Assembly (NCBI GenBank): GCA_963717645.1
Contig: CAVQWQ010000015.1
Span: 66,766-130,765, forward strand
DNA length: 64,000 bases
Reading direction: 5' to 3'
Source: an uncultured Actinomycetes bacterium
GTDB taxonomy: Bacteria; Actinomycetota; Acidimicrobiia; Acidimicrobiales; AC-9
Shown one piece after another: positions 49,147 to 64,000 of the stretch; the first letter of the stretch is position 1; each line of letters begins with the position of its first letter. Under the pieces are notes generated by a model. It saw nothing but the letters and a program-made list of their open reading frames with translations. It made no database searches and was not told the DNA's origin. The translations under genes and the position numbers were made by a program.

Positions 49147-49165
49147 AGTGCGCTAGCATAGATGC

Positions 49166-50566
49166 ATGACCAAGCCCCGGAGCGCCTCCGTCTACTGCCG
49201 GATCTCCCGTGACCGCGACGGCGAGGGCCTCGGCGTGGCTCGCCAGGAGAAGGACGCCCAGGAGTGGGCCGCTCGCCACGGGTGGACCATCGCCGAGGTC
49301 TACGTCGACGACGACATCTCGGCCTACAACGGCAAGCACAGGCCCGCCTACCGTCAGCTGCTCAGCGACATCGCCGAGGGGCGGCGCGACGGCCTGATCG
49401 CCTGGCACCCCGACCGATTGACCCGCCGACCCACCGAGCTTGAGGAGTTGGTCGAGGTGGTGGAGGGAACCGGGGTGCCCATCGGCACCGTCACCGCCGG
49501 CGACATCGACCTGGCCACCCCCAGCGGCCGCATGACGGCCCGTATCCTCGGCTCGGTGGCCCGCCATGAGTCCGAGCACAAGGCCGAGCGCATCGCCCGC
49601 AAGCACCGCGAACTGGCCGAGGTCGGCAAGGTCTCCGGTGGCGGTCGCAGGGCCTTCGGCTACAAGGCGGGCGGGATGGAGATCGAGCCCGCCGAGGCCC
49701 GCCTCATCGAGGAGGCCGCCGAGCGGACGCTCGCCGGCGAGGCGCTCCGCTCGGTCGTGGCCGACTGGAACCGCCGAGGCGTCAAGACCGTGACCGGGGC
49801 CCAGTGGTCGGCCACAACCCTGCGGCGACTGCTGCGCTCGGGGCGCATCTCCGGTCAGCGCGAGCACCACGACCGCATCATGGGCACGGCGGCCTGGCCC
49901 GCCATCATCGACCCGGCCACTACGTGGCGCCTGCGGGCCGTGATCGACGACCCAGCCCGCTCAGGGCGTCACCGCGGGGAGAGCGACTACGTCCTCGCCG
50001 GGCTGATGCGCTGCGGTGCCTGTGGCACGACCCTCACTTCCCACCAAGCCTCGAGGAAGGGTCGGACCGTGCGCCGCTACCACTGCATGGCCGACCGCGG
50101 TGGGTGCAATGGCGTCGGCATCATCGCCGCCCCCGTCGAGGAGTTGGTCACCGAGGCGGTCCTCACCCGACTGGACAGCCCAGCCCTGCGTAAGGCCGTG
50201 GCTCGGCGCTCCAAGCCCCGCAACGGGGCCGAGAAGGCCCTACGGGCCCTGGAGGCCAAGGAGGCCGAGCTCGGCGAGATGTGGGCCGGCGGTGAGATCA
50301 CCCGCGCCGCCTGGTCGGCGGCCAGGGACCGGCTGGCCCGCGACATCGAAGCGGCCCGGTCGGCCACCAGCGGACAGGTCCGCGAGGAGACTGCCGCCTC
50401 CCTCATGGGCAAGGGCGCCGACCTCCGCAAGCGCTGGGATCGTCTCCCCACCGAGACGAAGCGGACCATCATTTCCACCGTGGTGGAAGCAGTCACCATC
50501 GCCCCCACCACAAAGGCGGTCAACCGCTTCGACGAGGGCCGGGTCAGCGTCCTCTGGAGGGCCTAG
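49166..50566 (+). CDS. Large serine recombinase (integrase)
   Basis: YCRIS catalytic Ser, YVDDDISA, RPAY, DRLTR, recombinase domain, Zn ribbon CGAC...C...C, coiled coil. Confidence 0.95.
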   Translation: MTKPRSASVYCRISRDRDGEGLGVARQEKDAQEWAARHGWTIAEVYVDDDISAYNGKHRPAYRQLLSDIAEGRRDGLIAWHPDRLTRRPTELEELVEVVEGTGVPIGTVTAGDIDLATPSGRMTARILGSVARHESEHKAERIARKHRELAEVGKVSGGGRRAFGYKAGGMEIEPAEARLIEEAAERTLAGEALRSVVADWNRRGVKTVTGAQWSATTLRRLLRSGRISGQREHHDRIMGTAAWPAIIDPATTWRLRAVIDDPARSGRHRGESDYVLAGLMRCGACGTTLTSHQASRKGRTVRRYHCMADRGGCNGVGIIAAPVEELVTEAVLTRLDSPALRKAVARRSKPRNGAEKALRALEAKEAELGEMWAGGEITRAAWSAARDRLARDIEAARSATSGQVREETAASLMGKGADLRKRWDRLPTETKRTIISTVVEAVTIAPTTKAVNRFDEGRVSVLWRA

Positions 50567-50861
50567 CCCGCTCCCGCCGGTACGCGTCCCGCTCACCCTC
50601 CGTCGTCCCGCCCCACACGCCGGCCAGGTTCTCGTCGGCCAGCGCGTAGTCGAGGCACTCCTCGCGTACCAGGCACGACTCGCAGACCCTCCGCAGGGCG
50701 CCGACGTCGTCGCCACGGTCGGGAACGAAGCGGAGGGACGGGTGCTCGCGGCAGAGAGCGTCACGCAACCACGCCGGCCGGCCAAGAAGCTGCTCCAGCG
50801 TCCGGGGCTCGGACGCCCACGGCGCCCGGCCAAAGACCGCGCCACCCACATCGAGGGCCAC
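50544..50861 (-). CDS. WhiB-family Fe-S transcription factor
   Basis: W..DALC...CESCLVREEC...GVWGG, four Cys. Confidence 0.9.
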   Translation of the reverse strand: MALDVGGAVFGRAPWASEPRTLEQLLGRPAWLRDALCREHPSLRFVPDRGDDVGALRRVCESCLVREECLDYALADENLAGVWGGTTEGERDAYRRERARPSRGR

Positions 50862-50964
50862 GGATGGTCGAGCCTAGAACCTGCGCTCGTGGTCGCATAG
50901 CCCCCTAACGACGAGGGTGCGACGGTTGTTCGCCCGTTGCCCGCTCGCCGGCGCCGCGCCACGC

Positions 50965-51363
50965 TCAGGAGCCGTCGCCGGACCTCTCGGCTCCTCGGAA
51001 CCAGCCAGCTACGTCGGCGAGCGCAAGCCGCCACGTCCGGGATTCGCCTCCTACCGTTTCACGGAGGTGAAGGAAGGCCCCTGACTCCTTAGGCCGAGGC
51101 TGGGTCACCTGTTCCTCTCGCCACTTGTCGAACTTCGCCCGTTGATCAGCCTTAGGCTGGCCATCGACCCCTGCCTCAAGGGCCTCGGACTTCTCTATGT
51201 TCCTGCTCGCAGGCTCGTTGACCCACGCCCGGCGACTGACCAGGCGCCCGCTCATTTCCCGACCACCCACCAAGACGACGACCGGCAGCTCGAACGGAGT
51301 CTCCTCCTTGTCGAGCTCCTCCACAAGCGATACCAGCTCGCTCAGCGCCAGATCGGCACTCAT
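50965..51363 (-). CDS. Hypothetical protein, GvpU-like
   Basis: VVVLVGGREMSGRLVS...FLHLRE...WRLALADVAGW pattern; ATGA overlap with the upstream ORF. Confidence 0.55.
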   Translation of the reverse strand: MSADLALSELVSLVEELDKEETPFELPVVVLVGGREMSGRLVSRRAWVNEPASRNIEKSEALEAGVDGQPKADQRAKFDKWREEQVTQPRPKESGAFLHLRETVGGESRTWRLALADVAGWFRGAERSGDGS

Positions 51364-51653
51364 CGACCCGGTGCCCATGTCTCGACGGGAGTCTTCCCGT
51401 TCCCGCTCACCGACGCGCCCGTCACGCTCCGCGGCAGGGGTACCGGCTGCACACCAGCCGTTGCGGCGGCCATCTTGGCGGTGCCGCACGCCTCGGCCAG
51501 CTGCGCGTACACCTCGAGCACGATGTTCGGGTTGGCGTCGCGCCACAGCCGCTCGAGCACTGCCGGTGTCATCGCCGCCAGATGGGCGATGGCGGCGTTC
51601 CGGCGTTCGACAGCTCGGCCCAATGAATCCGGCGGCTGGTCGGTGAGCGGCAC
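51360..51653 (-). CDS. Hypothetical protein
   Basis: 97-aa ORF with an ATGA overlap to the downstream gene. Confidence 0.45.
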   Translation of the reverse strand: MPLTDQPPDSLGRAVERRNAAIAHLAAMTPAVLERLWRDANPNIVLEVYAQLAEACGTAKMAAATAGVQPVPLPRSVTGASVSGNGKTPVETWAPGR

Positions 51654-51790
51654 TGGTGGACCAGCCTACGCCCCCGGCGGGCGTTCGACGGGGTACGTGG
51701 TGCCGGCCCTCCTGTCCCAGGGGCTCAGAGGGGCGCACACAGCACCGATCCGCCCCGGCAGGGAGCCGGCGGGAACTGCGCTCGGCAGAT

Positions 51791-52270
51791 TCATTCGTGA
51801 TCTTGGTGGGGCACATCGGCGTGGGTCGTACCACCGGAATCTCCGTGTTTGGTGGCGAACTTCCCATCGGTATGCGCGGCGTAGTCAGTGTGGGGGCCGG
51901 CTACGCCGCTACTCCCGTCAGCGTGTTGCACGTCCGCGTGGTCGGTGTGCGGCACAACCCGGATGTTGCTGTCGTGGTGGTCGGCGTGGCTATCGACGTG
52001 ACCCCCGTGGCTGTCGGAGTGGCTGTCGATGTGACCTCCGTGGCTGTCGCCGTGGGGCGAGTCGCTGTGAGCGGCGTCGAGGTGGTCGGTGTGGCTGCTC
52101 GCATCGCTATGGTCGCTGTGGGCGGTGTCCGTGTGGACGGCGCCGGCGTTGCCACCGCCGCAGGCGCCGGCGATCGCGGGCAGAGACACAGCGGCAGGCA
52201 GGGCCATACCGGCCCGTAACAGCTCGCGGCGGGAGAACTGGCGCTGGCGCTCTTGGCGTTCCTCGTCCAC
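51791..52270 (-). CDS. Tat-type lipoprotein with His-X-Asp repeats (copy 1)
   Basis: AGGGAGG RBS and GTG 52270; FSRRELL twin-Arg, AGAC lipobox, 20 HxD triads. Confidence 0.8.
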   Translation of the reverse strand: MDEERQERQRQFSRRELLRAGMALPAAVSLPAIAGACGGGNAGAVHTDTAHSDHSDASSHTDHLDAAHSDSPHGDSHGGHIDSHSDSHGGHVDSHADHHDSNIRVVPHTDHADVQHADGSSGVAGPHTDYAAHTDGKFATKHGDSGGTTHADVPHQDHE

Positions 52271-52538
52271 AACCGCCGCCTCCCTTTGACTTTGAGACGA
52301 GGGCAGCGTACGCCCGGCGGCCGGCGTAAGCAGGAACTTGCCGCCGCCTTGTCGGGGGTTTGGCTCTTCTGCGCGTAACCCGATCCGCCGTCCGCCGGTC
52401 ATGACGGGATCGAACGTCGCAGGGGCATTCAATCTGCTCTTTGCAGCCAAGCAAGGAGGGACTGGCGTGCCAGGAGTCTCGACCACACCGGAGAACACCG
52501 TGGCCTTCCCGGCGCACCCCCACTTCGACCACATCGAT

Positions 52539-52790
52539 CTGGCTCACTGGCCATGACGCGAGAGGACGCCATGCGGCTGCTCGGCGACCTAGGGGAGGTG
52601 CAGGGCCGTCTTGACCGGCTCTCTGACGGCCTCCGGGCCTTGCTTGCCGACGACGAGGCCTAGCCCAAGCGCGGCTCCGCTCTTCGCCCGAGCGGAACCC
52701 CCCAACGCCGGACGCCCGGCTGCAATGGCGGGACAGGCTCGAGGCGTCCTTTCGCAAGTGTGCGCCTCCGGTCGCCACTTGTCGATCCCC
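52539..52790 (+). repeat. Repeat A, copy 1 (contains ORF 52553-52663, MTREDAMRLLGDLGEVQGRLDRLSDGLRALLADDEA)
   Basis: Aligns by eye with 53639-53896 and 55428-55558. Confidence 0.85.
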
Positions 52791-52927
52791 TGGGTGAGGC
52801 GGGCCAGCTCACAACTGAGGGCCCTTTCGGCAGCGGGTCAAAAGAGCGATCTGACCTCCCGCGAGCGGGTAGTGCAGGGACCTCGGGGCGACGGCGAGTA
52901 GCCCCCGCGTTGAGATAACTCAGGTCT

Positions 52928-53428
52928 CTAGCCAGACACGTTGACGTTTCCTTGGACGTTTGTGACGGTGAGATGGAAGGTGCGGGTTTGGCCTTGGGCT
53001 GTGGCCACGCAGTCGAAGGTCTCACCGGGCGACTTGAGAATGATGTTCTGGCTCCCGCAGTTCACATTGGCATCCACCTGAAGCTGCGCGCTGATTTGTT
53101 GCTTGAGACGGCTCGCAGCGGTCGATGCGACGATTACGGCCTTCGTTGGCTGGGCCTCGAACTGTGAACCTGAGGTGAAGACCACATTGAAAGGGACCTC
53201 TTGTCCACCGACGTTCGCCTGGCATTGGAACGTGGCCCCCGCCTTAGCTTGAGCGCCGGAGGGACATGTGACCTTGACGTCGTTGGTGTTCAAGGTCGTC
53301 TTGATCTTGGCCGTCACCTGGTTCTGGACTTGGCTGCTGGGGCTGCCGCCGCCGCCACAGGCGTCCAGGGCTATGACCAAGCCAAGCGGTGCAATCCCGA
53401 AGAGCCAGCGCCGGGATATCAGAGCCAT
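52928..53428 (-). CDS. DUF4333-like lipoprotein (two Cys-paired beta repeats)
   Basis: SRRWLF signal, LDAC lipobox, VTCP...GATFQC and VNCG...GETFDC repeats. Confidence 0.75.
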   Translation of the reverse strand: MALISRRWLFGIAPLGLVIALDACGGGGSPSSQVQNQVTAKIKTTLNTNDVKVTCPSGAQAKAGATFQCQANVGGQEVPFNVVFTSGSQFEAQPTKAVIVASTAASRLKQQISAQLQVDANVNCGSQNIILKSPGETFDCVATAQGQTRTFHLTVTNVQGNVNVSG

Positions 53429-53484
53429 CACACGTTCCCCCCCAAGTAGTCCTTCGGCTGAGCCGTGACAGGCTAGCGAGCTAG

Positions 53485-53763
53485 ATGGGGCCCTGTCGGG
53501 CGGGGCAGCAGAGCCAGGCGGATGACTTGCACCCGCCGCCCCACCCACGGCATCGAGCCCTGCACACCAGTCGCCTTCGGCACGTTCTAAACACAGCGTC
53601 CTCGGAACAGCTGCGTCGGTCCATCGCCATGCTCCAGCCTGGCTCACTGGCGATGAAGCGAGAAGACGCGATGCGACTGCTCAGTGAGTTGGGCGAGGTC
53701 CGCGGGCGCCTCGACCAGCTGCGCCACGGGCTCCTGGCCCTGCTCGGCGAGGAGGATCGCTAG
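53485..53763 (+). CDS. Small helical hypothetical protein, most complete copy of the repeat-A peptide; start uncertain
   Basis: EQLRRSIAMLQPGSLAMKREDAMRLLSELGEVRGRLDQLRHGL; reading frame and stop position conserved across three copies. Confidence 0.6.
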   Translation: MGPCRAGQQSQADDLHPPPHPRHRALHTSRLRHVLNTASSEQLRRSIAMLQPGSLAMKREDAMRLLSELGEVRGRLDQLRHGLLALLGEEDR

Positions 53764-53896
53764 GACCTCAAGCGCGGCTCGCCCCGCCGAGAGCAGAGCC
53801 GCCCCAACACCGGACGCCAGGCCTGACCGGCCGGATCAAGGCGCCTGTGCGTCCGTACCGTCAGCGTGCGCCTCCGGTCGCTACCTGTCGATCCCC
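53639..53896 (+). repeat. Repeat A, copy 2
   Basis: Shares the CTGGCTCACTGGC start, the peptide frame, the hairpin and a 31-bp distal block (29/31 identical) with copy 1. Confidence 0.85.
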
Positions 53897-54185
53897 CGTC
53901 TCACCGCGATGCCTGGTGGGAACAGCCGTGGGGGATGCTTCCCCAATTGCCGCTAGGGGTCTCCCCGAGTAGGGTGACCTCTGGACGGGACCGACCAGCC
54001 GACTGTGGCTTGGTGAGCCGACCGATTGGCCTCCGCCCAGGGGTAGTCCGGCCCCGGTGAGGAGCGAGGTTGTGCCCGGGTAGGAGGCCCCCCGAGAAAA
54101 GGGGTCGACACCGGGCCCCGAGCGGCGGACACGGGACAGTTTGGCTCGGGGGGATCACGGCCCTCCCCGAGCTGCCTGGCTAGTT

Positions 54186-54400
54186 CGCTCAAAAGGAGGG
54201 CGGCTCAACGGGGTGGGATCGGCGGAACGAATCACCCCGGAGCCGCCCACCTCAACGGGCGCTCGGGAGGGCCGACCGATGGTGGGGGCGAGCCAGGCCA
54301 CCGACCGGCCCACCTGAGCGTCACCTCAGCGCGCTCAGGAGGGCGGCTCACGGGCAGGGGCACCACACCCTGTCCGGAGCCACCCACCTCAGCGGGCGGA
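54186..54400. repeat. Repeat B, copies 1 and 2 (hairpins)
   Basis: CGCTCA(AAA)GGAGGGCGGCTC-variable inner stem-GAGCCRCCCACCTCARCGGGCG. Confidence 0.8.
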
Positions 54401-54585
54401 CTGACATGGCCACTCAGTGACCCAGAGGCGGCCACCGTCACCCGCGGTGCGGCGGGTAACGGCAACCAAGAAGAGAAACCCAATCACGCGCACCTCCTCT
54501 CATAGAAAGTGTCCCTCCAGCGTGGGCTCAGAGCACGGGCCGAACGGCACTTAGCGCGGGCCGCGAGCCCGAGCGAGCATGACGA

Positions 54586-54768
54586 CTAACCACCAAGGGC
54601 TCGGCGGGCGAGGATCGCCCTGCGCTGTCCAGCCGTCTTGCCGCCCCATATCCCCAGCCGCTCACGGCGCTGCAGAGCGTGGTCGAGACACTGCTGGCGC
54701 ACCAAGCACTGTTCGCACACCGCCCCGAAGCGGCCATTGCGGCGGATGCCTGCTTGCCGTAGCGTCAA
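54586..54768 (-). pseudogene. WhiB-family gene, probably N-terminally truncated
   Basis: CEQCLVRQQC...GIWGG present, but the first Cys and the upstream Trp are absent. Confidence 0.65.
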
Positions 54769-54818
54769 TGGTCGTCGCCGCTGTGGCGGGGCTTGCGTGA
54801 AGCGAGAAGGGGGTCGCC

Positions 54819-55133: not shown

Positions 55134-55196
55134 CTGCCCGGGGTGGACCCGACCGAGCCCGTGGAACGACTACCGCCGCCGTCCCGCTGCCGAGGC

Positions 55197-55318
55197 GACC
55201 CGGCCCATCCGGGGCGTCAGCTGACTCGCTCAGGAGGGCGGCTCCAACGGGACCAAGGGGTATCACCAGCTCGCGCTGGAGCCCCCACCTCAACAGGCGG
55301 ACAATCGGTCGTGGCCAC
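55197..55318. repeat. Repeat B, copy 3
   Basis: GACCCGGCCCA...CGCTCAGGAGGGCGGCTC...GAGCCCCCACCTCAACAGGCGG aligns with 54303-54412. Confidence 0.8.
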
Positions 55319-55364
55319 CGCCCGCCTCATCGGAGGCTCATCCTCTTGACACTGCCAGTGTGAT

Positions 55365-55685: not shown

Positions 55686-56246
55686 TCAGTGGTCACCGTG
55701 CGCGTCGTCACCGTGGGGCGTGTCGAGGTGGGAATCGCTGTGGCTATCACCGTGGTCGGAGTGGGGACGGGAGGGCTGGTCAGTGTGGGTGGACTTCCCG
55801 GCATCAAGGTGTGAGGAGTCGCCGTGAGGGCTGCTGGCTCTGTCGCTGTGCATGGGAATAAGCGCTTCGTTGGTGTCGTAGTGCGGCGTGTCCACGTGTG
55901 GGGTGTCCGTATGGTGCGCGTCCGAATGTGCAGAGTCGCCGTGGCCGGTGTCCGCGTGGTTCGAGTCCGTGTGGATCGAATCACCGTGAGCGGTGTCATT
56001 GTGGCTCGAGTCCTGATGATCGGCGTGGTCGGCGTGGCTGCCTGAGTCCGTGTGATCGGCGTGGCCGGCGGCGCTGCTGGTGCCGCTGCCGCAGGCTGCG
56101 GCGACCGCCGGTATCGACAGCACGACCGGTACAGCCATGCCGGCTCGCAGGATCTCCCGCCGGGAGAACTGCCGCTGGCGAGTGGCGCGCTCCTCGTCGT
56201 CTGAGGACCGCCGGCCGGGCTCGCCCCGGTCGTCAGGATGATCCAT
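55686..56246 (-). CDS. Tat-type lipoprotein with His-X-Asp repeats (copy 2)
   Basis: FSRREIL twin-Arg, AAAC lipobox, 24 HxD triads; GAGG RBS. Confidence 0.82.
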   Translation of the reverse strand: MDHPDDRGEPGRRSSDDEERATRQRQFSRREILRAGMAVPVVLSIPAVAAACGSGTSSAAGHADHTDSGSHADHADHQDSSHNDTAHGDSIHTDSNHADTGHGDSAHSDAHHTDTPHVDTPHYDTNEALIPMHSDRASSPHGDSSHLDAGKSTHTDQPSRPHSDHGDSHSDSHLDTPHGDDAHGDH

Positions 56247-56528: not shown

Positions 56529-56900
56529 ATGACCACGGGGATCGCAGGAATGGCGGCAGCGCTTCTGCCTCTCGAAGGCGACATGAGCTGGCGAGGAGAC
56601 GGCGCCTGTCGTTGGTACCCGACGGATTGGTGGTTGCCCGTGAGCAAGCAGGCGAGCGCCGTGGCTCTCTATATCTGCGAGACGTGCCCGGTCCTGCTTG
56701 AGTGCATGGACTACGGCCTAGCCCACCCGTCTCTCCACGGCGTGTGGGGAGGGCTCACTGAGTACCAGCGCCACCGGATCCGGGGTGGGAAGGACCGCAA
56801 CCACCACGAGGAAGCACGGCGGAAGATCGAGCTACGAACCGAACGAAGGCGGCGGACCCGGCGAGCGACCACGAGCACGAGTGGAAGTGGGAGGGCGTAG
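56529..56900 (+). CDS. WhiB-family Fe-S transcription factor
   Basis: WRGDGAC...CETCPVLLEC...GVWGGLTE, Arg-rich tail; GGAGG RBS. Confidence 0.9.
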   Translation: MTTGIAGMAAALLPLEGDMSWRGDGACRWYPTDWWLPVSKQASAVALYICETCPVLLECMDYGLAHPSLHGVWGGLTEYQRHRIRGGKDRNHHEEARRKIELRTERRRRTRRATTSTSGSGRA

Positions 56901-56978: not shown

Positions 56979-57278
56979 GTGGAGAGATTAGAGGACCGCC
57001 CGACCGCCGAACTGGTGGAACTCGTGAGGGAGTTCCTGTCCGACGCCCACGTACTCGTGGACGAGCCTGGGGCGAAGGGTCGCGGAACCCACGACTGGCG
57101 CTGCCCGCCCTCCGAAGCCAGAGAGGCGATGACAGTGGCGAACGTACCCCCTTGGGAGGCCGCTGAGCGCTACCTGCTCGAGTTGCTGGAGACGCCGGAC
57201 AGCCCTGACACGTCCAGTCTGAACGGTCGACAGGTGCCGCTTGAGCTTCGCCAACGCATCGTTGAACAAGCGAGATGA
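56979..57278 (+). CDS. Hypothetical protein
   Basis: AAGGAGGG RBS; ATGA-coupled to the next ORF. Confidence 0.55.
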   Translation: MERLEDRPTAELVELVREFLSDAHVLVDEPGAKGRGTHDWRCPPSEAREAMTVANVPPWEAAERYLLELLETPDSPDTSSLNGRQVPLELRQRIVEQAR

Positions 57279-57529
57279 TCGCCAGCATCGTGAGGAACCA
57301 CGACGAACTTCAACGGTTGGTCCTCGGGTGGGCAGACGATCCCTACGCCGACGGGGCCGCCCTGCAAGCTTGCGATGAGAGCGGGCTCACGGCGCTCTAC
57401 GACATCCGAACCTGGATCGCTGCCGCGACGTCCAGAGGGATAGACGTTCCCTCGCCCTCGGATCTCGCCGTTCTGCGAGCCGGTGTCTCTGGGTTTCTCA
57501 CCCCGGGTGAGCAGTCAAGCGATGAGTGA
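57275..57529 (+). CDS. Hypothetical protein
   Basis: ATGA overlap with the upstream ORF. Confidence 0.5.
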   Translation: MIASIVRNHDELQRLVLGWADDPYADGAALQACDESGLTALYDIRTWIAAATSRGIDVPSPSDLAVLRAGVSGFLTPGEQSSDE

Positions 57530-57599
57530 TGCAGAAGACCTCGAAGCCAGAAGATCCTTTCTCAACGAGGACTCATCAGCGAACACCGGAGTGAGGTGA

Positions 57600-58118
57600 A
57601 TGTCCAACCAAGACGACAATGAGAAGCCTCCTGCCGACGAGACGGTAAGACAACGGCGGGCGAGGGAACTTCAGACGGGCCAGCTCAGCCCGGAAACGGT
57701 CAAGGGCATCCAGGCACTTGTCGCCAGCCTCCGCGACCGGTCGACGGTTCTTGGGCAAGTCTTCGCCGACGCCGCCGAGACAAACAGGCAACAACTCGAG
57801 TGGCTGCTCAAGGTAAAGGAGGCCCAGGAACGGTCCGCCAGAGACTTGGGGCGCGGCATTCGGAGTGAGATTGAGACGAAGATAGAGCGGGCGGCACTCG
57901 AGGCCCAGGCTGTGCAGGCGGCGATAGCCAATACTGAACGCATGGGTGAGTTGAACGAGTTGACCAAGACCCAGAACGAGCTGACAGTCGATTTACTCGA
58001 TGCTTTCGGTGGCCAGTCGAGGACGGCTAAGACCGTAGGAGTCCTTTTGGTACTTGGAACGCTTGACAGCATCGTTATCGCCATCATCAGCCTGGTCGTG
58101 AGCCTCAGCCCCAAATGA
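57600..58118 (+). CDS. Coiled-coil protein with a C-terminal membrane anchor
   Basis: GAGGTGA RBS, helical Q/E/L-rich body, hydrophobic C-terminus, visibly more A/T-ending codons. Confidence 0.6.
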   Translation: MSNQDDNEKPPADETVRQRRARELQTGQLSPETVKGIQALVASLRDRSTVLGQVFADAAETNRQQLEWLLKVKEAQERSARDLGRGIRSEIETKIERAALEAQAVQAAIANTERMGELNELTKTQNELTVDLLDAFGGQSRTAKTVGVLLVLGTLDSIVIAIISLVVSLSPK

Positions 58119-58405
58119 CCCGGCCAGGTTGTGCCTTGTACTTCGCCGGCGTCATCCTTCTCGGCGCCATCATCACGTGGCCGGCGATCGTCATCCCCGC
58201 CCTGGTGCTCGTCGTCGCCACGGTGGTGGCGGTTAGACGGAAGTACGCGACGGTGTCGCATGTTGGCGTTCAGCACATGGAACACGACCGGCCCTTTAGC
58301 GAGCGAGGAGCCGAATGGCTCGAGGCCAAGACCCGTTGCGACTGGTGCGGGGCGCCGCCACAGGTCGGCCGCCACTGTCGGTGGTGTGGGACGGCGCTGG
58401 CGTAA
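58115..58405 (+). CDS. Small membrane protein with a C-terminal zinc ribbon
   Basis: Hydrophobic N-terminus; CDWC...CRWC; ATGA overlap. Confidence 0.6.
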   Translation: MTRPGCALYFAGVILLGAIITWPAIVIPALVLVVATVVAVRRKYATVSHVGVQHMEHDRPFSERGAEWLEAKTRCDWCGAPPQVGRHCRWCGTALA

Positions 58406-58733
58406 AGGATCGCCGCTGTCACACCCTCCGGTACCATCGAGATTGAGTAGGACGTCCTTAAAACCACATAGGCGTGTGGCCCCTCCTGAGACAGCGCCCC
58501 CGGTTCCATGACCGGGGCGCTGTCGCGTCAGGAGTAGCCCATACGCGTATGGGCACGTCCGCTATTTGGTCCTGCCTCGTCCTCTCGTCTTGCCACTCGC
58601 TGGCTTGGCACTGGCCCGCCTACCCGTGCCCGGCGACATGGACCCTAGGCTCCGAGCGCGCTGGGAGCCCGGCTTGAATGCATGCCTCGCCAATTGCGGC
58701 GGTGTCTTGCCGGTCTTCTTTGTCGCCATTAGA

Positions 58734-59126
58734 TCACCTGCCTCTGATGCTGCGGAGTTGCTCGACCATGGCGTCGATCCGCGCCTGCTCCGGCGATGGC
58801 TCGGGCTCGGTGGCGTTGGAGAGATTGACCTCCCTGGCGCGGTCAAGGGTAAAGAGGAACGGGTGCCGGTTGGTCCGTCTCCTCGGGTCCAGCCGCTCGA
58901 GCACGAACGCCTGATGGGCGGCCGCTGCACGCTCGCGCTCGCTCTGGAACTCGCCGTACTCAGCGCTGAGCCGGACGGTCGCGTCGGCCATCGCCTGCGC
59001 GTTGGCAACGACGCCGTCGACGGCCTCGGCCTCGGCCTCGGCCAGAGTTTCGATGACGGCTCGGTCATCGGCGTCGAGCATTGGTTCCCAGTTGCCACCG
59101 GGGTCAGGCATTCGCAGTTCGTACAT
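58734..59126 (-). CDS. Hypothetical protein
   Basis: GAAGGAG RBS; same strand as the terminase genes. Confidence 0.6.
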   Translation of the reverse strand: MYELRMPDPGGNWEPMLDADDRAVIETLAEAEAEAVDGVVANAQAMADATVRLSAEYGEFQSERERAAAAHQAFVLERLDPRRRTNRHPFLFTLDRAREVNLSNATEPEPSPEQARIDAMVEQLRSIRGR

Positions 59127-59140
59127 TGGTTGCTCCTTCC

Positions 59141-59608
59141 TCAGCCGTAGACGGCTGGGTCGAAATGTTCGCTGATGTCGTAGTGGGAGACCGTCAACAA
59201 GAACTGACCGCGGGCGTCCAACACACCACCCGTCCGGCCCTCGGCGACGGCCTCGTAGTGGGCGCGTTCGGCCAACACCTGCTCGCGGCTCTTCTTGGGG
59301 CGGGCAGCCTCGGCGGCTCTGGCCTCCTCACGCGCTCGACGACGAGACTCTGGGTCGCCGGGGCCAATCCAGGGTTCGGCTTTCTGCCAAAGCCGCTCGG
59401 CTCTGGCTTGGGCTACGGCTTCGGAGGGTGGACCGTCCAGAGTGCCCGGAGCGAGGTCGTACACCTCGACGGGGTCACCACGTCCAGGGCCTCGTTCATC
59501 ATCGCCGACGAGCGTGCTGCTACGGCAGGGGGAGACGACCGTCTGAATCGCTCTCCACGGTGGTGGTCCGATGCTCTCGGGCTTATCGGTAGTCCTCATG
59601 TTGTCCAT
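59141..59608 (-). CDS. Hypothetical protein
   Basis: GAGGAG RBS; co-oriented with the terminase genes. Confidence 0.6.
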   Translation of the reverse strand: MDNMRTTDKPESIGPPPWRAIQTVVSPCRSSTLVGDDERGPGRGDPVEVYDLAPGTLDGPPSEAVAQARAERLWQKAEPWIGPGDPESRRRAREEARAAEAARPKKSREQVLAERAHYEAVAEGRTGGVLDARGQFLLTVSHYDISEHFDPAVYG

Positions 59609-59777
59609 TCTCCTCTGTCAGGTTGGTGATAAGGGGACGTTCCGCCGGCGGGTAACACTTGGCTGCCGGCCGCAGCCCGAAGCTGCCGCGGCGGCGCCTG
59701 GTGTCGCGCACGGCCGCGTCCGGATGAAGAACGAACGTGGCGGCACGTTCCCCGCCGGCAAATCGTGACGGTGGACA

Positions 59778-60575
59778 TCAGTAGACACCGCCAGAGTCGG
59801 GATCAAAGGGCCAGCTCTTTCGGACTTTGCGAGGCACCATGTCCGGGCCGACGACGACCTTAAAGCCCTCGGGATGACCGGGCGGGCCGATGACGCGGTT
59901 GCCGAAGACGCCGGTGTGGAGACCGGGGCTCGGGTCGTCGCGGTACTCGTGCACGCCACCAGAGTGCTGGGCGGCGTGTTCGGGCGAGCCGGGGGCGTGG
60001 TACGGACCGAGCTTGACGTGCAGATAGACGCTGAGCATCAGCGCCACGACCATATCGTCGTGTTGCGTCCTGGCGTCATTGCTGCAGGTGGTACCTGTCG
60101 CAGTTGTGTCGTACGAGTAGCCCTTGAGCTCGTCGGTCAAGGTGGCGAGGTCCGCGAGTGCGGGCGCCGCGTGCAGCGTATGGTTCTGGAGCTCCACCGA
60201 CAGGCTGCCCACGAGGTCCTGCTTCGGCGCTGTCCAGCGGCCGTACCGGGTGGTGGCGTTGGACCCCGCGGTGATGGTGACGCCGATCGGGCTCGGCCTC
60301 AGCTTGCGGGTGGCCATCTCGACCACCGGCCCGCCCAAGCCTGTCGCGTCGATCGCGACCTGCACCCCGCCGTCGAGGTTGGGCTCGCCGTAGTGAGACC
60401 CGAGGCGGTCGATGATGCCCTGGAGGCGGTGGAGTTGTGCGTCGTAGGACTCACCCAGCGGGAAGCGCTGTGCCACACGGATGTCGAGTTGACCGCGCTG
60501 GCGGTCGATCACGATCGCGGCGCTCGGGTCATGGCTCTGCCCGACGTCCACACCACACAACCAGCGAGCGCTCAC
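59778..60575 (-). CDS. Terminase large subunit nuclease (RNase H-like) domain as a separate gene
   Basis: GVDVGQSHDPSA, IDATGLG, HDDMVVAL; GTGA overlap with the ATPase gene. Confidence 0.8.
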   Translation of the reverse strand: MSARWLCGVDVGQSHDPSAAIVIDRQRGQLDIRVAQRFPLGESYDAQLHRLQGIIDRLGSHYGEPNLDGGVQVAIDATGLGGPVVEMATRKLRPSPIGVTITAGSNATTRYGRWTAPKQDLVGSLSVELQNHTLHAAPALADLATLTDELKGYSYDTTATGTTCSNDARTQHDDMVVALMLSVYLHVKLGPYHAPGSPEHAAQHSGGVHEYRDDPSPGLHTGVFGNRVIGPPGHPEGFKVVVGPDMVPRKVRKSWPFDPDSGGVY

Positions 60576-61333
60576 AGCGGCGTTACCTCCGGGTCGAGGA
60601 TGGCGTCCACCAGTTCGGGCGGGAAGACGGCGCCCTCGGCGGCACCGAAGGTGACCTCGTACTCGGCGGCGAATCGCAGCGCCGGCATGGTGCGGCGGGC
60701 CTCCTCGATGCGCTCAGGCGTGATGCGGCCACACTCCGAGGCGGTGACCTTGATCTTCATGTAGGGCTCGGTGGACGACCACGTCAGCCAGAACCAGCCC
60801 CGCATGCCGTTGGGCGTCGACAACCCGATCAGTCGACCGCCCGTGGCTCCCAGCATCGGAAGGACGGCGTGGACGAGGGAGTCGGTGACGAATCCGGCCT
60901 CGTCGAGAATCACGAGGTGCGGGCTGTAGCCACGGATGGTCGTCTCGCTCGAGGGCAAGGAGAGGATGCGGCTGCCGTTCTGGAGCCTCAAGGACAGGAT
61001 GGACTCGCTGACGGGTCGCGTGCTGGCCACCTGTGGTTGGCTGGCCAGCGGCGTGAGCAGCTCGCGGACGCGGCCGAAGACCTCGCTCGACTGGCGCTGA
61101 CTCGGGCTGACCAGCAACGTCAACGACTTCTCGACGGTCAAGGCCTGGTCCAAGGACATGGCGGCCGCGACAGTCGACTTGCCCACCTGCCGGGCGCATC
61201 GCACCAGTGCTCGCGATGGGCGCTCGGTCAGTAGCCTCGCTTGCCACTCGTCGGGCTCGAGGCCGCTCGCCCTCATGATGTCGAGGGGGCTGGGCGGCGG
61301 GGCGAAGCGGCGGGCGAGGGAGGCGTCGGTCAT
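60572..61333 (-). CDS. Terminase large subunit ATPase domain as a separate gene
   Basis: PDEWQ, Walker A ARQVGKST, IRG, Walker B VILDEA, coupling motif STPNG, AEY. Confidence 0.88.
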   Translation of the reverse strand: MTDASLARRFAPPPSPLDIMRASGLEPDEWQARLLTERPSRALVRCARQVGKSTVAAAMSLDQALTVEKSLTLLVSPSQRQSSEVFGRVRELLTPLASQPQVASTRPVSESILSLRLQNGSRILSLPSSETTIRGYSPHLVILDEAGFVTDSLVHAVLPMLGATGGRLIGLSTPNGMRGWFWLTWSSTEPYMKIKVTASECGRITPERIEEARRTMPALRFAAEYEVTFGAAEGAVFPPELVDAILDPEVTPL

Positions 61334-61430
61334 GGCCCATTCTCCCAGAGAGGCGCATGACTAGATCCCTTGCAACGTAAGGCTTTTCGTGCCCTGGCAT
61401 AGTCACCGAACGTTGGGGCTGGCCAACGTG

Positions 61431-62039
61431 TCATGTGGTGCGCTCCTCCCCTGCTTCGAGGGCGAGGGCGTGGCGATGCAGCGTCGCCCTCACGTCGCTG
61501 TCAGTGGCATCCACACCGTGGTCAGCAAGAGCCAACTCGACCAGGCGGGCCATCATCGTGTACCTCGCCTCGTCGAGAGCGACCTTGCGCCCCTGGACGT
61601 CGAGTCGCCCGATGGTCGACAGCAGCGACGTGAGTTCCTTCGTGACCGCGACCAACACCGTCACCTCGCCACGGATCTGTTCGCCGCTACGGTCGTGCTC
61701 GTAGCGCACCGAACCCAGCCGCTCGACCTCGTCCTGCAACCCCTGGCGCAGCGCGTCCAGCTGGCCGGCCACGGACAGCAGGAGGTCGTACGCCTGCTCG
61801 ACCGACTCGAGCGGCTGCGCGACACCGAGCCGGGCGAGACCGCGCCGAGCCTCCTGTAGGACGAGTTCGTCGCGATGATGGGCAGCGACGGACGGCAGGG
61901 CGCCACCGTGCCAGGAGCATGGGCCACTTCCGAGGTGGTCCGTGCCGGCACCTGCAGGACGGCCACAGCGCTCCCCGTCTTCGCCACGGCGGGGCGCCCC
62001 GCACGCTGGTGTGTCGGTTCTCAGAACACCCTTGGCCAC
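61431..62039 (-). CDS. Terminase small subunit-like protein (HGG motif)
   Basis: CGA...C...GTDHLGSGPCSWHGG followed by a helical region, directly upstream of TerL. Confidence 0.65.
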   Translation of the reverse strand: MAKGVLRTDTPACGAPRRGEDGERCGRPAGAGTDHLGSGPCSWHGGALPSVAAHHRDELVLQEARRGLARLGVAQPLESVEQAYDLLLSVAGQLDALRQGLQDEVERLGSVRYEHDRSGEQIRGEVTVLVAVTKELTSLLSTIGRLDVQGRKVALDEARYTMMARLVELALADHGVDATDSDVRATLHRHALALEAGEERTT

Positions 62040-62049
62040 GCCTCAATCC

Positions 62050-62190
62050 CTTTCTTCATAGAGCTCGCTTTCTTCATAGAGCACCCCCACAGGGGGACCG
62101 TTCCCGAAAAGTCGTCTCATGCGTGGTTGGGGTACTTAAAGAGAGAGCCGAGGACTGTCATAGGGGTGCATCCGACGTTTCGGGAACGGT
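62050..62190. promoter_or_regulatory. Candidate replication origin or packaging site (direct plus inverted repeats)
   Basis: CTTTCTTCATAGAGC at 62050-62064 and 62068-62082; ACCGTTCCCGAAA(A/C)GTCG inverted at 62097-62114 and 62173-62190; locally AT-rich. Confidence 0.45.
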
Positions 62191-64000
62191 TGCCGTCCAT
62201 CGTTGCCGGGTCCAGTCCGAACAGCTCCAGCGGTCGGCCTTCCCCTTGCCCATCGACTCCCTGCGGAGCACCCCATGGGCAGCGAGGTCCTCCATGGCGC
62301 GTCTGGCCGTTTGTGTGGGGTATCCGGCGGCGCTCGCTAGGTCGGGTGCTGTGAGGTGCTCCTCGGCCAACAGGAGCTCCAGCACGGTACGGCGGATGGC
62401 CGGCATGGAGTCCAGGGCCACCTTGGCGACGACCCGCCACGCCTCAGTTCGGTCCACGCCGATAACGGTCAGTCCGGCGTGGAGGCGAGCCAGGACCAAG
62501 GTGAGCCGTCCAGGCGCCTCGGCCTCAGGAATGAGCTCGATCTCTCGGCTGTAACTGTCCCGCTCGATGGTGGACCGACAGCGCACGGCCAGCACAGCCA
62601 AGGAGATCAGCCGCTCTTCCTCGGCCGCCGTCATCGAGGGCAACTCTGAGGGGATGGACAGTCCCTCGAACAGGCGACACACCGCCTGAGACAACTCGGC
62701 TCGCATCTTGCGCTCCTGCCCGGCGTGAGCGAGCGCCGAGCGGGCCTGCTCCTCGGCGGTGATGGCGGGAAGCCGGAACAGCACGAACCGCTCGCCCATC
62801 GAGCCCATGACCGCGTGGTGGTTGTCGATCGCCGGCGTGCAGCCGGCGATGAGGCCGACCTTGCCCTCCCAGTGCAGCGTCTTGCCACCGTCGACTCCGA
62901 GATGGCGCGTCCACGATCCGTCGTAGACCTCACGAAGAGCAGCCAGGACAGACGCCCTCGCCTCTCGGTGCATGGAGACCACCGAGCCGAAGTCCTTGCA
63001 CAGGATGACGCCGAACTCGCCGATCTCCCTGAGCAGTCCACCCTTGGCCGTCTTGGCCTTGTCCCTGCTGGCCGTACCCGACAGCAGGGCCGGCTCGGTG
63101 ATGGTCGCCGCCGGATAGACGTAGGGCAGCCGGGCGGCGCTGATGAGAACTTCGGTCTTGCCTCCCGATGCCGGCCCGACCTCGAGGCCCCAGAACGGAT
63201 CCCCTGGCAACAGGTTGGCGGCGATCCCGCCCAAGGCGAACTCCACTGGAGAGGGGTCGGGCATCGACAGCCAACGTGAGTAGGCCGACAGCACCTCCTC
63301 GAGCCCCCGAGGGCCCTCGACGTGGTGGTCCTTACGACGAGCCTCGGGCGAACTCGCAGCCTTCTTCGCCATCTCGCCCGACGGGGTCGGGTCGTCCTCG
63401 TCCCAGTCGCCGGGCTCGATCCATCCCGGTGGGTGCCAGCCGTTACCGGCCACAGCTGGGTCGGACTCAGGCTCCTCGACGATGAGCTTGCCCAAGGTCC
63501 GCTTGGTCTCATCCCCAACGCGGTCGCCGTACTTACCCACCGACGGCTTGTGGCGTTGGACAAGGTCGAGCACCTGGCCGTCGCTCAACCCCGCGGCCTT
63601 CGCCGCACCGACGAAGTTGTAATGACGGGCGCTCCGGTCATCGACGTCGGCCTTGTCGGCAAGGAACGGGGCGAGCGCGGCCGGCACGTCCTCGTCGTCG
63701 ACTGGCTCCGCCTCGATGTCGTCGGTTGCACGTCGCCGGTCTGCCCGCGCCATCGGGAGCAGGCGGACCAGTTCCTCGAGGTCCCAGCCCGGCTCGTCGA
63801 GGACGTCGGTCAGTACCACGGCGGCCGGCTCGGCCGCCCCGAACAGAGGAGGCTTCCAGTTGAGCGAGCCGGGCGGGCGAAGGTGCGCATTGATCGCACC
63901 CGGGCTTGGGTCGGCGTCGAGGTACCGGGCGAGCCTGCGGTTGAGTTCGGCGGCTTGGGCCGGCTCGACTGGTTGGGCAAGCGCCACGTACACGTGCAAG
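62158..64000 (-). CDS. Primase-helicase (RepB-like primase, helical primase C-terminal domain, P-loop ATPase, wHTH), 5' end outside the window
   Basis: LHVYV and LRPPGSLNWK primase motifs, DRS helix, Walker A GPASGGKT, LREVYDG, ERF, C-terminal HTH. Confidence 0.78.
   Translation of the reverse strand, partial: LHVYVALAQPVEPAQAAELNRRLARYLDADPSPGAINAHLRPPGSLNWKPPLFGAAEPAAVVLTDVLDEPGWDLEELVRLLPMARADRRRATDDIEAEPVDDEDVPAALAPFLADKADVDDRSARHYNFVGAAKAAGLSDGQVLDLVQRHKPSVGKYGDRVGDETKRTLGKLIVEEPESDPAVAGNGWHPPGWIEPGDWDEDDPTPSGEMAKKAASSPEARRKDHHVEGPRGLEEVLSAYSRWLSMPDPSPVEFALGGIAANLLPGDPFWGLEVGPASGGKTEVLISAARLPYVYPAATITEPALLSGTASRDKAKTAKGGLLREIGEFGVILCKDFGSVVSMHREARASVLAALREVYDGSWTRHLGVDGGKTLHWEGKVGLIAGCTPAIDNHHAVMGSMGERFVLFRLPAITAEEQARSALAHAGQERKMRAELSQAVCRLFEGLSIPSELPSMTAAEEERLISLAVLAVRCRSTIERDSYSREIELIPEAEAPGRLTLVLARLHAGLTVIGVDRTEAWRVVAKVALDSMPAIRRTVLELLLAEEHLTAPDLASAAGYPTQTARRAMEDLAAHGVLRRESMGKGKADRWSCSDWTRQRWTATVPETSDAPL

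Follow-up and report, generated by a model that had tools for sequence, protein, structure and literature searches.

We propose that a 17,333-nt island in the genome of an uncultured soil actinobacterium (host assembly 97% complete, 4.44 Mb) is an integrated phage satellite of an uncatalogued kind that carries its own terminase, a reading to which we assign a probability of roughly 55%. The island lies at the end of the 64,000-nt stretch that was analysed (the window) and reaches 2.5 kb beyond it. On the minus strand it encodes, in this order, an AEP primase-ATPase, a repeat-containing spacer, a small zinc-ribbon/coiled-coil protein, the ATPase and the nuclease of a large terminase (TerL) as two genes, ORFans and cargo, and a large serine integrase forms the far end. 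Gene order and identities had been proposed in a sequence-only reading of this DNA, and both hold on the minus strand when assessed by Pfam, PHROGs and fold. Our literature search found no description of an island of such kind.

Borders, insertion site and genes of the island

The ends of the island are set by a split Peptidase_A4 gene together with a common GCCGGC core. When the two halves of the gene are joined at the core they read in frame (...GEAVAG/SNVWTITL...), as in the intact paralogues on contigs C10 and C35, and in the rejoined element ends an 8-bp inverted repeat lies on either side of the core. The sequence-only reading had put the start at 49147, which comes within 4 nt of the left core, and the end at 64000, which has to be moved, as the element runs on to the right core. 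Element proteins are also present on another contig, whose 17,308 nt come to at most 25 nt off the element's length; TerL and integrase have the same protein sequences on the two contigs, and the left-flank protein was seen on the 137,193-nt contig only. The contigs from four soil runs, all belonging to one study, were fragmentary and contained no end-to-end junction. No tRNA was found in the 19.5-kb region that contains the island. The features of the element are:

49138–49143, no strand: attL, 6-bp core GCCGGC, the sole 6-mer common in register to both junctions
49166–50566, plus strand: large serine integrase, beginning 23 nt inward of attL and directed into the element
50544–50861, minus strand: WhiB-like regulator, cargo or regulation (Pfam Whib, 5.2e-16)
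51791–52534, minus strand: possible secreted protein (TAT_signal, 0.0093, 16.3 bits, below the cut-off of 22.7)
52928–53647, minus strand: DUF4333 protein, cargo (Pfam DUF4333, 2.9e-16)
55686–56246, minus strand: paralogue of the 51791–52534 product by sequence identity, cargo
56529–56900, plus strand: second WhiB-like regulator (Whib, 5.8e-15), opening an opposite-strand block
56979–58405, plus strand: four ORFan genes without family (56979–57278, 57275–57529, 57600–58118, 58115–58405)
58734–59126, minus strand: 130-aa ORFan 3' of the terminase genes, its frame favoured by third-position G+C
59141–59608, minus strand: 155-aa ORF, an uncertain gene call (frame signal mixed; exact form absent from source annotations)
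59778–60575, minus strand: TerL nuclease subunit, RNase H-like (phrog_27743, 5.6e-23; phrog_2, 1.5e-6)
60572–61333, minus strand: TerL ATPase subunit (phrog_7579, 1.8e-51; Terminase_6N, 3.3e-8, 33.9 bits, cut-off 22)
61431–62039, minus strand: small zinc-ribbon and coiled-coil protein, 202 aa, TerS-like by position
62047–62082, no strand: two tandem 18-nt repeats directly upstream of the TerS-position gene, a candidate cis site
62158–64000 and on to 64377 past the window, minus strand: AEP primase-ATPase, 739 aa, with C-terminal winged helix (fold and motifs)
66471–66476 (extrapolated window coordinates, past the window): attR, 6-bp core GCCGGC, 17,333 nt from attL

The integrase shows the domain order of large serine recombinases, with N-terminal resolvase, recombinase and zinc-ribbon domains that all score over their cut-offs (Resolvase, PF00239, 4.9e-30, 105 bits; Recombinase, PF07508, 2.4e-10, 41 bits; Zn_ribbon_recom, PF13408, 2.4e-9, 37.8 bits), and it matches phrog_95 at 2.2e-107. 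The insertion site agrees with such an enzyme: attL/attR cores of serine integrases are very short and often lie in a gene, and here a 6-bp core lies within the Peptidase_A4 gene. For the N-terminal 330 aa of the primase-ATPase, Foldseek returned RepB' (3h20; E 3.3e-10), the S-2L PrimPol and the LigD polymerase domain, and residues D96, D98, S121, G122 and H128 are invariant. A single feature, the Walker-A motif GPASGGKT, supports the putative ATPase part, and residues 661–708 gave weak wHTH matches.

No AlpA, MerR or Stl regulator was matched in the element; an 82-aa winged-helix protein reaches 23.4 bits with HTH_35, below the cut-off of 25. Copies 93% identical to the second WhiB gene occur twice on C31 and also on C18. 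The possible secreted protein is 47% identical to its paralogue, with more copies on C29, C10 and C8, and the DUF4333 protein weakly matches a mycobacterial family model, far under the cut-off of that model. All four plus-strand ORFans are present in the source annotations, in clusters of one or two members. The 130-aa ORFan, annotated in the source on two contigs, has no family in Pfam, PHROGs or NCBIfam and no match in the Atlas, and the 155-aa ORF has no Atlas match either. Actinomycete integrative and conjugative elements (AICEs) have an FtsK/SpoIIIE-type DNA translocase (TraB), and no such Pfam family occurs among the scanned ORFs.

A two-gene large terminase and the small protein upstream

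TerL proteins combine an ASCE ATPase bearing Walker A and B motifs with an RNase H-like nuclease. Both are present in the island, as two proteins rather than one polypeptide: the nuclease ORF, in a different frame, starts at a GTG that overlaps the terminal TGA of the ATPase ORF. Across 41 sequences, Walker A residues G51-K52 and Walker B residues D144-E145 of the ATPase are invariant, and S53-T54 nearly so. The nuclease scores 17.8 bits with Terminase_6C, under the cut-off of 22.6; its D10 and D16 are almost invariant, being kept in 90% of rows or more, and D76 and H172-D173-D174 are invariant in 12 of 12 aligned rows, phage TerLs included. With the Walker A/B and acidic residues kept, the packaging enzyme looks functional. 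A split TerL is usual for the clade, being found in 86 of 163 related loci against 5 with a fused one, and the split form also occurs in real phages, with portal and capsid directly after it (L103, L110 and others). The collections searched contained no phage TerL closer than 51%, and neither the family's 7 other genomes nor a sample of 400 genomes from the class yielded a close relative of the ATPase. This two-gene TerL of phages and islands offers a natural system for the study of ATPase-nuclease cooperation.

The gene upstream of the ATPase had been labelled TerS-like, a label that stands by position; the protein itself matches no family in Pfam, PHROGs or NCBIfam and gave no Foldseek or PDB-profile match. 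A TerS is a small, DNA-binding, oligomerising protein adjoining terL, and the 202-aa protein resembles one in its position, its zinc-ribbon motif and its five long helices (AF2 model, pLDDT 83.1); C13, C25, C41 and H44-G45-G46 are conserved. It has 5,199 representative relatives. Out of 100 of these, 73 match phrog_3678, of unknown function, and 10, 5 and 1 match three PHROGs that bear the name small terminase, with best E values of 3e-6, 1e-6 and 3e-10. In the present module and in the related modules on C1 and C7 (see below), the gene for the small protein immediately precedes that for the TerL ATPase, and the C29 copy is frameshifted. From this position and the weak family links of the relatives we infer a TerS role. 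This zinc-ribbon/coiled-coil family in the TerS position comprises ~5,000 clusters and has neither a Pfam nor an NCBIfam model.

The spacer at 62040–62157, earlier called repeat-rich, does contain repeats, a modest set comprising the two tandem 18-nt copies and one 18-nt inverted repeat. We regard the tandem repeats as a candidate cis site, pac or operator. Each of them contains GAAGAAAG, which has 39 copies in the 4.44-Mb genome, and six GAAG[AG]AAG motifs occur in the corresponding spacer of the C7 island.

Structural genes, related loci and alternative explanations

Portal, capsid, tail and lysis families were matched by none of 109 ORFs using Pfam (81 in the window and 28 beyond) and by none of 91 using PHROGs (63 and 28). 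The earlier statement that portal, capsid and tail are missing is borne out with the island's remainder included, as annotation of the rest of the element to its end added no structural genes. The portal, major capsid, tail and lysis genes that mark a tailed prophage were not found, and PF05065, PF04860 and PF05133, common capsid/portal families, have no match across the whole assembly. Portals start at roughly 350 aa and HK97-fold capsid proteins at roughly 270 aa; the integrase, primase-ATPase and TerL halves aside, no ORF favoured by third-position G+C exceeds ~260 aa, and the only two ORFs above this size, of 300 and 395 aa, overlap and lie in frames that are not favoured. Because shell, portal and tail genes are missing, the island most likely travels in the capsids of a helper phage.

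The genome holds four modules, the one described here (on C15) and three sisters on C1, C7 and C29, which form one TerL clade (support 86/98) and differ in integrases and replication proteins. The C7 sister occupies a compact island of ~10 kb, which has a tyrosine integrase and is bordered on both sides by apparent chromosomal metabolic genes, and ORFans are not conserved across the four modules. These observations bear on the idea that the element is self-sufficient, with particle genes hidden among its ORFans as an unrecognised capsid or portal or as a different vehicle. Very divergent capsids can escape profile searches, and about a dozen ORFs have no relatives of any kind; against this stand the lack of any credible unassigned ORF above the size just given, the C7 island, where no more than two small ORFs can be accommodated behind the terminase, and the lack of ORFan conservation among the modules, and we consider hidden particle genes highly improbable.

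In a search for the same core elsewhere, a reduced layout without portal and capsid matches was recovered at 10 of 25 related loci examined, six of them with an integrase and four with a primase or helicase. It was seen at all eight loci from metagenome and genome collections versus 2 of 17 from IMG/VR. The layout does not correspond to a single lineage on the TerL tree, where portal-less loci are interleaved with real phages; the portal-less labels require 8 changes, a number equally low in 232 of 500 label shuffles, and two pairs each join a portal-less locus to a phage (L037 with L103, 96/86; L131 with L110, 98/93). Such pairing is expected if the motor of a satellite must fit the portal of a related helper. 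Look-alikes come from a proteobacterial MAG and from metagenome contigs of 48–67% G+C, and the type is not specifically actinobacterial, as had been suggested.

The failure of portal-less loci to cluster is also expected from repeated deletion out of phages, and the island could be the decaying remnant of a temperate phage whose head, tail and lysis genes were lost. Decay does happen, as two of the sister modules look damaged, C29 visibly and C1 in part: on C29 the nuclease is missing along with the frameshift in the small protein, and on C1 the nuclease start is not alignable. Much of 51–59 kb, moreover, consists of ORFans with weak coding signal. However, the reduced set of integrase, replication gene, small protein and TerL pair is met repeatedly, in islands as small as ~10 kb and with integrases and replication proteins that are not related to one another, and its presence in three sister loci and in 10 of 25 related loci speaks against a single accidental deletion. 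In the present copy the catalytic motifs of integrase, primase, ATPase and nuclease are intact, the insertion is precise, and two contigs carry identical TerL and integrase proteins. We therefore judge a phage remnant distinctly unlikely.

A further explanation is that the terminase-like genes serve the island or the host without packaging the island, which would be transferred by another route; they might act in anti-phage defence, by competing for the phage portal or cutting phage concatemers, or resolve the island's own replication products. Satellites often double as anti-phage elements according to the account in PMC10085698, no helper, pac site or capsid-size gene has been identified, and four modules share one genome in which no capsid or portal was detected. 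On the other hand, PADLOC models gave no meaningful match in 37 element ORFs, and the integrase and replication gene beside the module, with a small DNA-binding-type protein upstream, reproduce the layout of a packaging operon. The same split TerL precedes portal and capsid in phages, and interference and self-packaging can coexist. We regard a purely non-packaging role as unlikely.

Proposed packaging route and comparison with known satellites

If the island is a satellite, the large serine integrase would have inserted it into the Peptidase_A4 gene and would excise it, and the AEP primase-ATPase would replicate the excised circle. The small zinc-ribbon/coiled-coil protein and the two-piece TerL would recognise, cut and pump the island DNA into procapsids via the portal, both provided by a co-infecting helper with a same-clade terminase that would also be the source of tails and lysis. 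As no capsid-resizing gene was seen, headful packaging would probably take up the 17.3-kb unit in multimeric form, and by analogy with PICMIs and phiAH14b the multimers would likely enter full-size helper capsids. As a satellite TerL would have to fit the portal of its helper, helper phages are expected to belong to the same split-TerL clade; searches of the host genome with three capsid/portal families returned neither a portal nor a capsid gene. More tentatively, and at somewhat less than even odds, the layout may represent a widespread, cross-phylum class of satellites with a self-encoded terminase (small DNA-recognition protein plus two-piece TerL) and no capsid genes, which would take over helper procapsids via motor replacement rather than terminase redirection or capsid resizing, and of which one soil actinobacterium would keep four diverged lineages.

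As described for SatelliteFinder in PMC10085698, classical PICIs have a core set of integrase, AlpA/MerR/Stl regulator, primase-replicase and capsid-morphogenesis gene, with terS at most as packaging gene. Like these elements (SaPIs and Gram-negative PICIs), our element is a small island with integrase, candidate regulators (two WhiB-like), primase-type gene (here of AEP primase fold), putative packaging-specificity gene and cargo, its size falls in the range reported there, and tails and lysis genes are absent. Unlike them, as far as that description goes, it has a complete two-gene TerL, which classical PICIs typically lack, has neither a capsid-morphogenesis gene nor an AlpA/MerR/Stl match, uses a serine integrase and sits in a protein-coding gene. 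The cf-PICIs are described as carrying their own capsid, protease, portal and head-tail adaptor/connector and as taking only tails (PMC10085698; 10.1101/2022.09.08.507074). By this account the island would share with them its own TerL and small terminase, and packaging independent of the helper terminase, and differs in its split TerL and in lacking capsid, protease, portal and adaptor/connector. The sequence-only reading was thus right that the gene set fits neither group.

Mycobacterial candidate PICIs are roughly 10 kb long. In the published description they include phiRv1 and phiRv2 and are defined by an integrase together with a gene for a major capsid protein (PMC10654092); they are likewise actinobacterial, some with non-tRNA serine integrases and some with terminase and helicase, whereas in our island the integrase is present and no capsid gene was found. 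PICMIs, described as having reduced gene content, and minimal satellites of the phiAH14b type resemble the island in lacking capsid-remodelling genes (PMC4936722 for phiAH14b). The authors of the phiAH14b study did not find a terminase gene (PMC4936722), and compared with both types as described, the island has both terminase functions, the small-terminase one by position.

Among phages, a close comparison is with Thermus phage Riverbug, Meiothermus phages MMP17 and MMP7 and the uncultured phages L103 and L110, which fall in the same TerL clade with TerL ATPases 43–44% identical. L103 and L110 share with the island a two-gene TerL preceded by a small gene, whereas in Riverbug and MMP17 TerL is a single protein of 415–417 aa; in contrast to the island, TerL is followed in these phages by genes for portal, head morphogenesis, protease, capsid and tail. 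To our knowledge, known satellites either borrow the TerL of the helper (PICIs, P4, PLEs) or bring a full capsid-and-packaging set (cf-PICIs). A motor-only island, if our reading is correct, would represent a third satellite strategy, motor replacement, and membership in the split-TerL clade would help to match satellites to their helpers in metagenomes. It would also account for islands that would fall outside all four families of current detectors as these are described in PMC10085698.

Borders and gene content of the island

The island lies on contig C15 of 137,193 nt, whose positions 66766-130765 form the window, in an assembly of 4.44 Mb (39 contigs, 97% complete, 7.6% contamination). With a G+C of about 70% and numerous WhiB genes, the host is an actinobacterium; its family is represented by only 8 genomes in the collection searched. 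Using tblastn against the genome, we found that two ORFs, a Peptidase_A4 ORF at the right (66459-67313) and one of 117 aa at the left (48793-49146), correspond to adjacent parts of paralogs that are intact on two other contigs, C10 and C35. The junction translations read ...GEAVAG/ATV-stop and ...MAG/SNVWTITL, and the C10 and C35 paralogs are uninterrupted at equal spacing. Both junctions share GCCGGC (49138-49143 and 66471-66476, 17,333 nt apart), and the element ends carry TGCATCTA at 66446-66453 and TAGATGCA at 49159-49166, 17 and 15 nt from this core and placed symmetrically about it. The island is thus a clean serine-integrase insertion; its borders are exact and the finding is real. No tRNA gene was found in the 19.5 kb spanning the island. 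Its left neighbours encode a class A penicillin-binding protein and an ABC transporter; the right-hand genes, which from Peptidase_A4 onward look chromosomal, continue with a glyoxalase, a LuxR-type response regulator and an anti-sigma-type ATPase.

The last 20 kb of the window contain 136 ORFs of at least 60 aa. Since high G+C produces many false ORFs, we combined third-position G+C with family searches, running Pfam on 81 and PHROGs on 63 ORFs of the window.

Main features of the island in window coordinates, with the search behind each
49166-50566, plus strand, large serine integrase (Pfam, PHROGs)
50544-50861, minus strand, WhiB gene (Pfam, PHROGs search)
52928-53647, minus strand, DUF4333 protein (Pfam, PHROGs search)
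56529-56900, plus strand, WhiB gene (Pfam, PHROGs search)
59778-60575, minus strand, TerL nuclease ORF (phrog_27743, 5.6e-23)
60572-61333, minus strand, TerL ATPase ORF (phrog_7579, 1.8e-51)
61431-62039, minus strand, 202-aa ORF between the long ORF and TerL (no Pfam or PHROGs match)
62158 onward, past the window end, minus strand, long ORF of 739 aa (family and fold searches)

The same searches bore out the gene order proposed in the sequence-only reading, as well as its remark that no portal, capsid or tail gene is visible: portal, capsid, tail and lysis families were all absent from the Pfam and PHROGs results for the window. That reading had recognised no head genes up to the element's end, and annotation of the 6.4 kb past the window agreed with it, revealing after the long ORF a protein of 261 aa that weakly matches DUF3102, two small ORFs, a winged-helix protein of 82 aa and an ORF of 93 aa, followed by the chromosomal-looking genes. 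That particle genes are hidden in the island we regard as very improbable. The two ORFs at 58734-59608 had no usable match in the ESM Atlas. Phage_capsid, Phage_portal and SPP1_portal gave 0 matches in the whole assembly and do match control genomes. An Rfam search gave 0 matches, and a promoter and terminator scan gave a signal no better than that of shuffled sequence.

Between 51 and 59 kb the island carries ORFans, two WhiB regulators, the DUF4333 protein and a pair of paralogs, one of which weakly matches a TAT signal. PADLOC on 37 ORFs detected no known defence system and returned only two weak partial helix-turn-helix matches; that the terminase genes serve a non-packaging or anti-phage use is unlikely in our judgement. 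The WhiB protein of 56529-56900 has 93%-identical copies on contigs C31 (two) and C18 and seems to ride on other islands in the genome. In a 92-aa ORF at 53485-53763, which matched no Pfam or PHROGs family, the C-terminal ~50 residues recur at 47-90% identity at no fewer than 12 places on seven contigs; this part may reflect a small gene present in many copies, or else a repeat element translated as if it were coding.

Packaging and replication genes

The TerL ATPase ORF matches a 239-position, ATPase-only TerL family (phrog_7579), and its stop overlaps the GTG start of the nuclease ORF. The Walker A and B motifs are fully or almost fully conserved across 41 sequences; in an alignment of the nuclease that includes phage TerLs, every row keeps D76 and H172-D173-D174, while D10 and D16 are kept in at least 90%. 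Among the matches listed, the closest deposited phages were Thermus phage Riverbug and Meiothermus phages MMP17 and MMP7, at 43-44% identity. These phages encode TerL as a single protein of 415-417 aa, and its gene precedes those for portal, head morphogenesis, protease, capsid and tail; the element has two ORFs, and none of these genes was found in it. Actinophage annotators label TerL ATPase and nuclease domains separately. We collected related loci from pattern searches (80 of 480 confirmed metagenome matches, 80 of 260 from IMG/VR and one from a species-genome collection). Matches lay on the expected strand at 163 loci, and at 86 of these the nuclease is a separate ORF just downstream; a two-gene TerL is thus a normal condition in this clade and not a frameshift error. 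TerL is fused at 5/163; the remaining 72/163 gave no nuclease match with three queries, and many of these either have an ORF of 415-620 aa or lie on contigs that stop short. IMG/VR contained no exact match to a 40-mer taken from the TerL gene, in a search that may miss near-identical records.

The 202-aa product encoded directly upstream had been called TerS-like. Its position before TerL supports the name. The protein itself had no match in Pfam, PHROGs or NCBIfam, and nothing usable came from Foldseek against PDB and BFVD or from PDB sequence profiles built from 30 and 100 sequences. We therefore call it the TerS-position protein, its role as TerS being a putative one. Its N-terminus carries C13, C25, C41 and H44-G45-G46, common to three sister copies in the genome and 27 database relatives and followed by helices; in the model (pLDDT 83.1), five long helices accompany a small head that resembles a zinc ribbon. 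Relatives are numerous, the family having 5,199 representatives at an E-value threshold of 0.001 and 2,678 at 1e-10. Among 100 scanned relatives, 73 matched phrog_3678 (function unknown), and three PHROGs annotated as small terminase were matched by 10, 5 and 1. At 58 related loci, tblastn placed an alternative protein of ~160 aa with a CxxC...H...H head in the TerS position, with no detectable kinship to the small protein (profile-profile probability <1%). The 18-nt repeats at 62047-62082, upstream of the small protein's gene, each contain GAAGAAAG, which occurs 39 times in the genome.

As for the 739-aa protein, its N-terminal 330 aa have 6 relatives at E up to 1e-5, in which this region is joined to AAA_25 or D5_N helicase modules, and D96, D98, S121, G122 and H128 are kept across eight aligned sequences. 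The AlphaFold model (pLDDT 80.1) resembles the primase RepB' (E 3.3e-10), the AEP domain of S-2L PrimPol and LigD polymerase domains. The C-terminal part has a GPASGGKT motif and weak winged-helix matches, and a PDB sequence search with both halves returned nothing useful. We thus take "primase" from the predicted fold, and the putative "ATPase" from the motif only. The DUF3102-like gene beside the primase gene contains a perfect 15-nt tandem repeat of 3.7 copies (16363-16418 of the 19.5 kb spanning the island, extrapolated window 64598-64653), a candidate set of replication iterons.

Related modules in this genome and elsewhere

The genome holds four TerL ATPase copies, at 100, 68, 53 and 52% identity, and the three sister modules lie on contigs C7, C1 and C29. 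The C7 island of ~10 kb (positions 5577-15900 of region L010), flanked by apparent chromosomal metabolic genes, runs from a tyrosine integrase through HTH genes, a DUF3987 helicase-type protein, the small protein and TerL ATPase to a TerL nuclease with C-terminal zinc ribbons; two small ORFs and then gpsA lie downstream. The 330-nt spacer before its small-protein gene has three 24-nt repeats with inverted copies, and six GAAG[AG]AAG motifs lie at the place equivalent to that of the element's repeats; C1 and C29 have none. The adjoining glycerol-3-phosphate dehydrogenase gene (L010 16319-17442) is read in two overlapping frames, owing to a frameshift or an assembly error.

The C1 module (L008 4166-20000 and L009 1-8600) encodes a serine integrase, an HTH protein, a D5_N/DUF5906 primase-helicase sharing 74% identity at its N-terminus with the element's primase, the small protein, both TerL proteins and an excisionase-like HTH_17 protein. 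Its nuclease start had no placement in the alignment, and the sequence agrees with an island that is partly broken. C1 also has a second, frameshifted serine integrase adjoining an acyl-CoA dehydrogenase fragment, and P450 and acyl-CoA dehydrogenase genes on both sides with IS3-type transposase pieces, an arrangement that looks like a nested or tandem insertion. The C29 copy (L012 10572-13862) is decayed: its small-protein gene is frameshifted and no nuclease was found, the TerL ATPase being 68% identical to that of the window; two beta-propeller-like proteins adjoin. Across the sister loci, neither Pfam on 112 ORFs nor PHROGs on 71 detected a portal, capsid or tail protein.

By exact look-up, a further contig of 17,308 nt was found to encode the integrase, both TerL proteins, the small protein, a variant of the WhiB protein and several ORFans; it differs from the element in length by 25 nt. 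The left-flank protein was found only on the 137,193-nt contig. On this second contig the primase gene is frameshifted into 95 + 652 aa and the WhiB protein has four changes. The contig may be circular, or it may be an assembly bubble reflecting a population polymorphic for the island. We aligned contigs from 4 soil-metagenome runs of one study to the 19.5 kb spanning the island; these short pieces contained neither an attL-attR joint (empty site) nor a joint leading back (circle). A single low-depth contig passes from position 16140 of the 19.5 kb to 18234 (extrapolated window 64375 to 66469); in it, 34 nt of other sequence link the primase gene start to a point no more than 2 nt from the right att core. 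A second low-depth contig passes from 14913 to 18732 (63148 to 66967) and connects mid-primase sequence with the Peptidase_A4 gene. Such contigs, which skip parts of the right end, may be variant or rearranged population copies or chimeras.

Family scans of related loci covered 149 ORFs of 8 loci (from 11 chosen) and then 93 larger ORFs of 17 (21 chosen; near-copies L124, L141, L150 and L172 dropped), the second scan being restricted to ORFs no shorter than 200 aa downstream and 280 aa upstream.

Related TerL loci by gene content
Portal and/or head genes after TerL, 15/25: L103, L105, L108 (near-copy of L110), L110, L116, L118, L119, L121 (TerL fused), L135, L140, L142, L143, L145, L149, L169
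No portal or head matches, 10/25: L014, L018, L021, L036, L037, L064, L065, L093, L131, L146

Portal-less loci made up 8/8 of those examined from metagenomes and the genome collection, versus 2/17 from IMG/VR, a collection selected for looking viral. Six of the ten have an integrase (five tyrosine, and serine in L146), and four a primase or helicase (L014, L036, L093 and, weakly, L131). The clearest parallel to the element is L093, on a 112-kb contig of 48% G+C, with the order primase, three small genes, TerL ATPase, TerL nuclease, two small genes, tyrosine integrase and transporter genes. The small protein's head motif is resembled in island L036. L014 strongly matches a family named baseplate hub and weakly a protease, and L064 has a weak protease match. 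The IMG/VR contig L146 (534-13990) encodes a serine integrase, a 780-aa unknown protein, a split TerL and then two minor-tail-protein matches, and is a variant with tail parts and without head parts.

A maximum-likelihood tree built from 30 TerL ATPase rows unites the four copies of the genome in one clade (support 86/98) but does not resolve the backbone, 13/27 inner branches being open. Portal-less and phage rows are interleaved, with well-supported pairs of L037 with L103 and L131 with L110, and the portal-less label requires 8 changes, a number as low in 232/500 shuffles; on the TerL ATPase gene the portal-less state is therefore not a single old lineage. Repeatedly, then, islands either acquire a terminase from phages or arise from phages. 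That the element is a prophage in decay seems to us improbable.

Comparison with known satellites

We favour, at a probability of roughly 0.55, the view that the element is a phage satellite with its own terminase: the island would supply the terminase, and a helper phage of the same TerL clade would supply procapsids, tails and lysis. A literature search that may miss subscription-journal and recent papers revealed no account of a satellite that lacks capsid genes yet encodes its own TerL. All 1,550 records matching TerL are below 60% identity. MiniFlayer and MulchRoom were rejected as an identity, and the best 30 of these records include no Streptomyces satellite; in the available descriptions both encode encapsidation machinery, and they reportedly lack key replication genes. 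Also rejected were AICEs, the element having no FtsK-type translocase; the haloarchaeal SRCE satellites, which are spindle-virus related; the EPIPs, which bear capsid, scaffold, adaptor and tape-measure genes (preprint); and phiAH14b, in which its authors, in the available text, found no terminase (PMC4936722).

PICIs are defined, in the accessible part of PMC10085698, by an integrase, a regulator, a primase-replicase, a capsid-morphogenesis gene and terS, typically with no other phage structural genes, and cf-PICIs have capsid, portal, adaptors and terL in addition. For the mycobacterial candidate PICIs, phiRv1 and phiRv2 among them, the defining genes are those for an integrase and a capsid, with a terminase in some and serine integrases in some, as far as the available text of PMC10654092 describes them.
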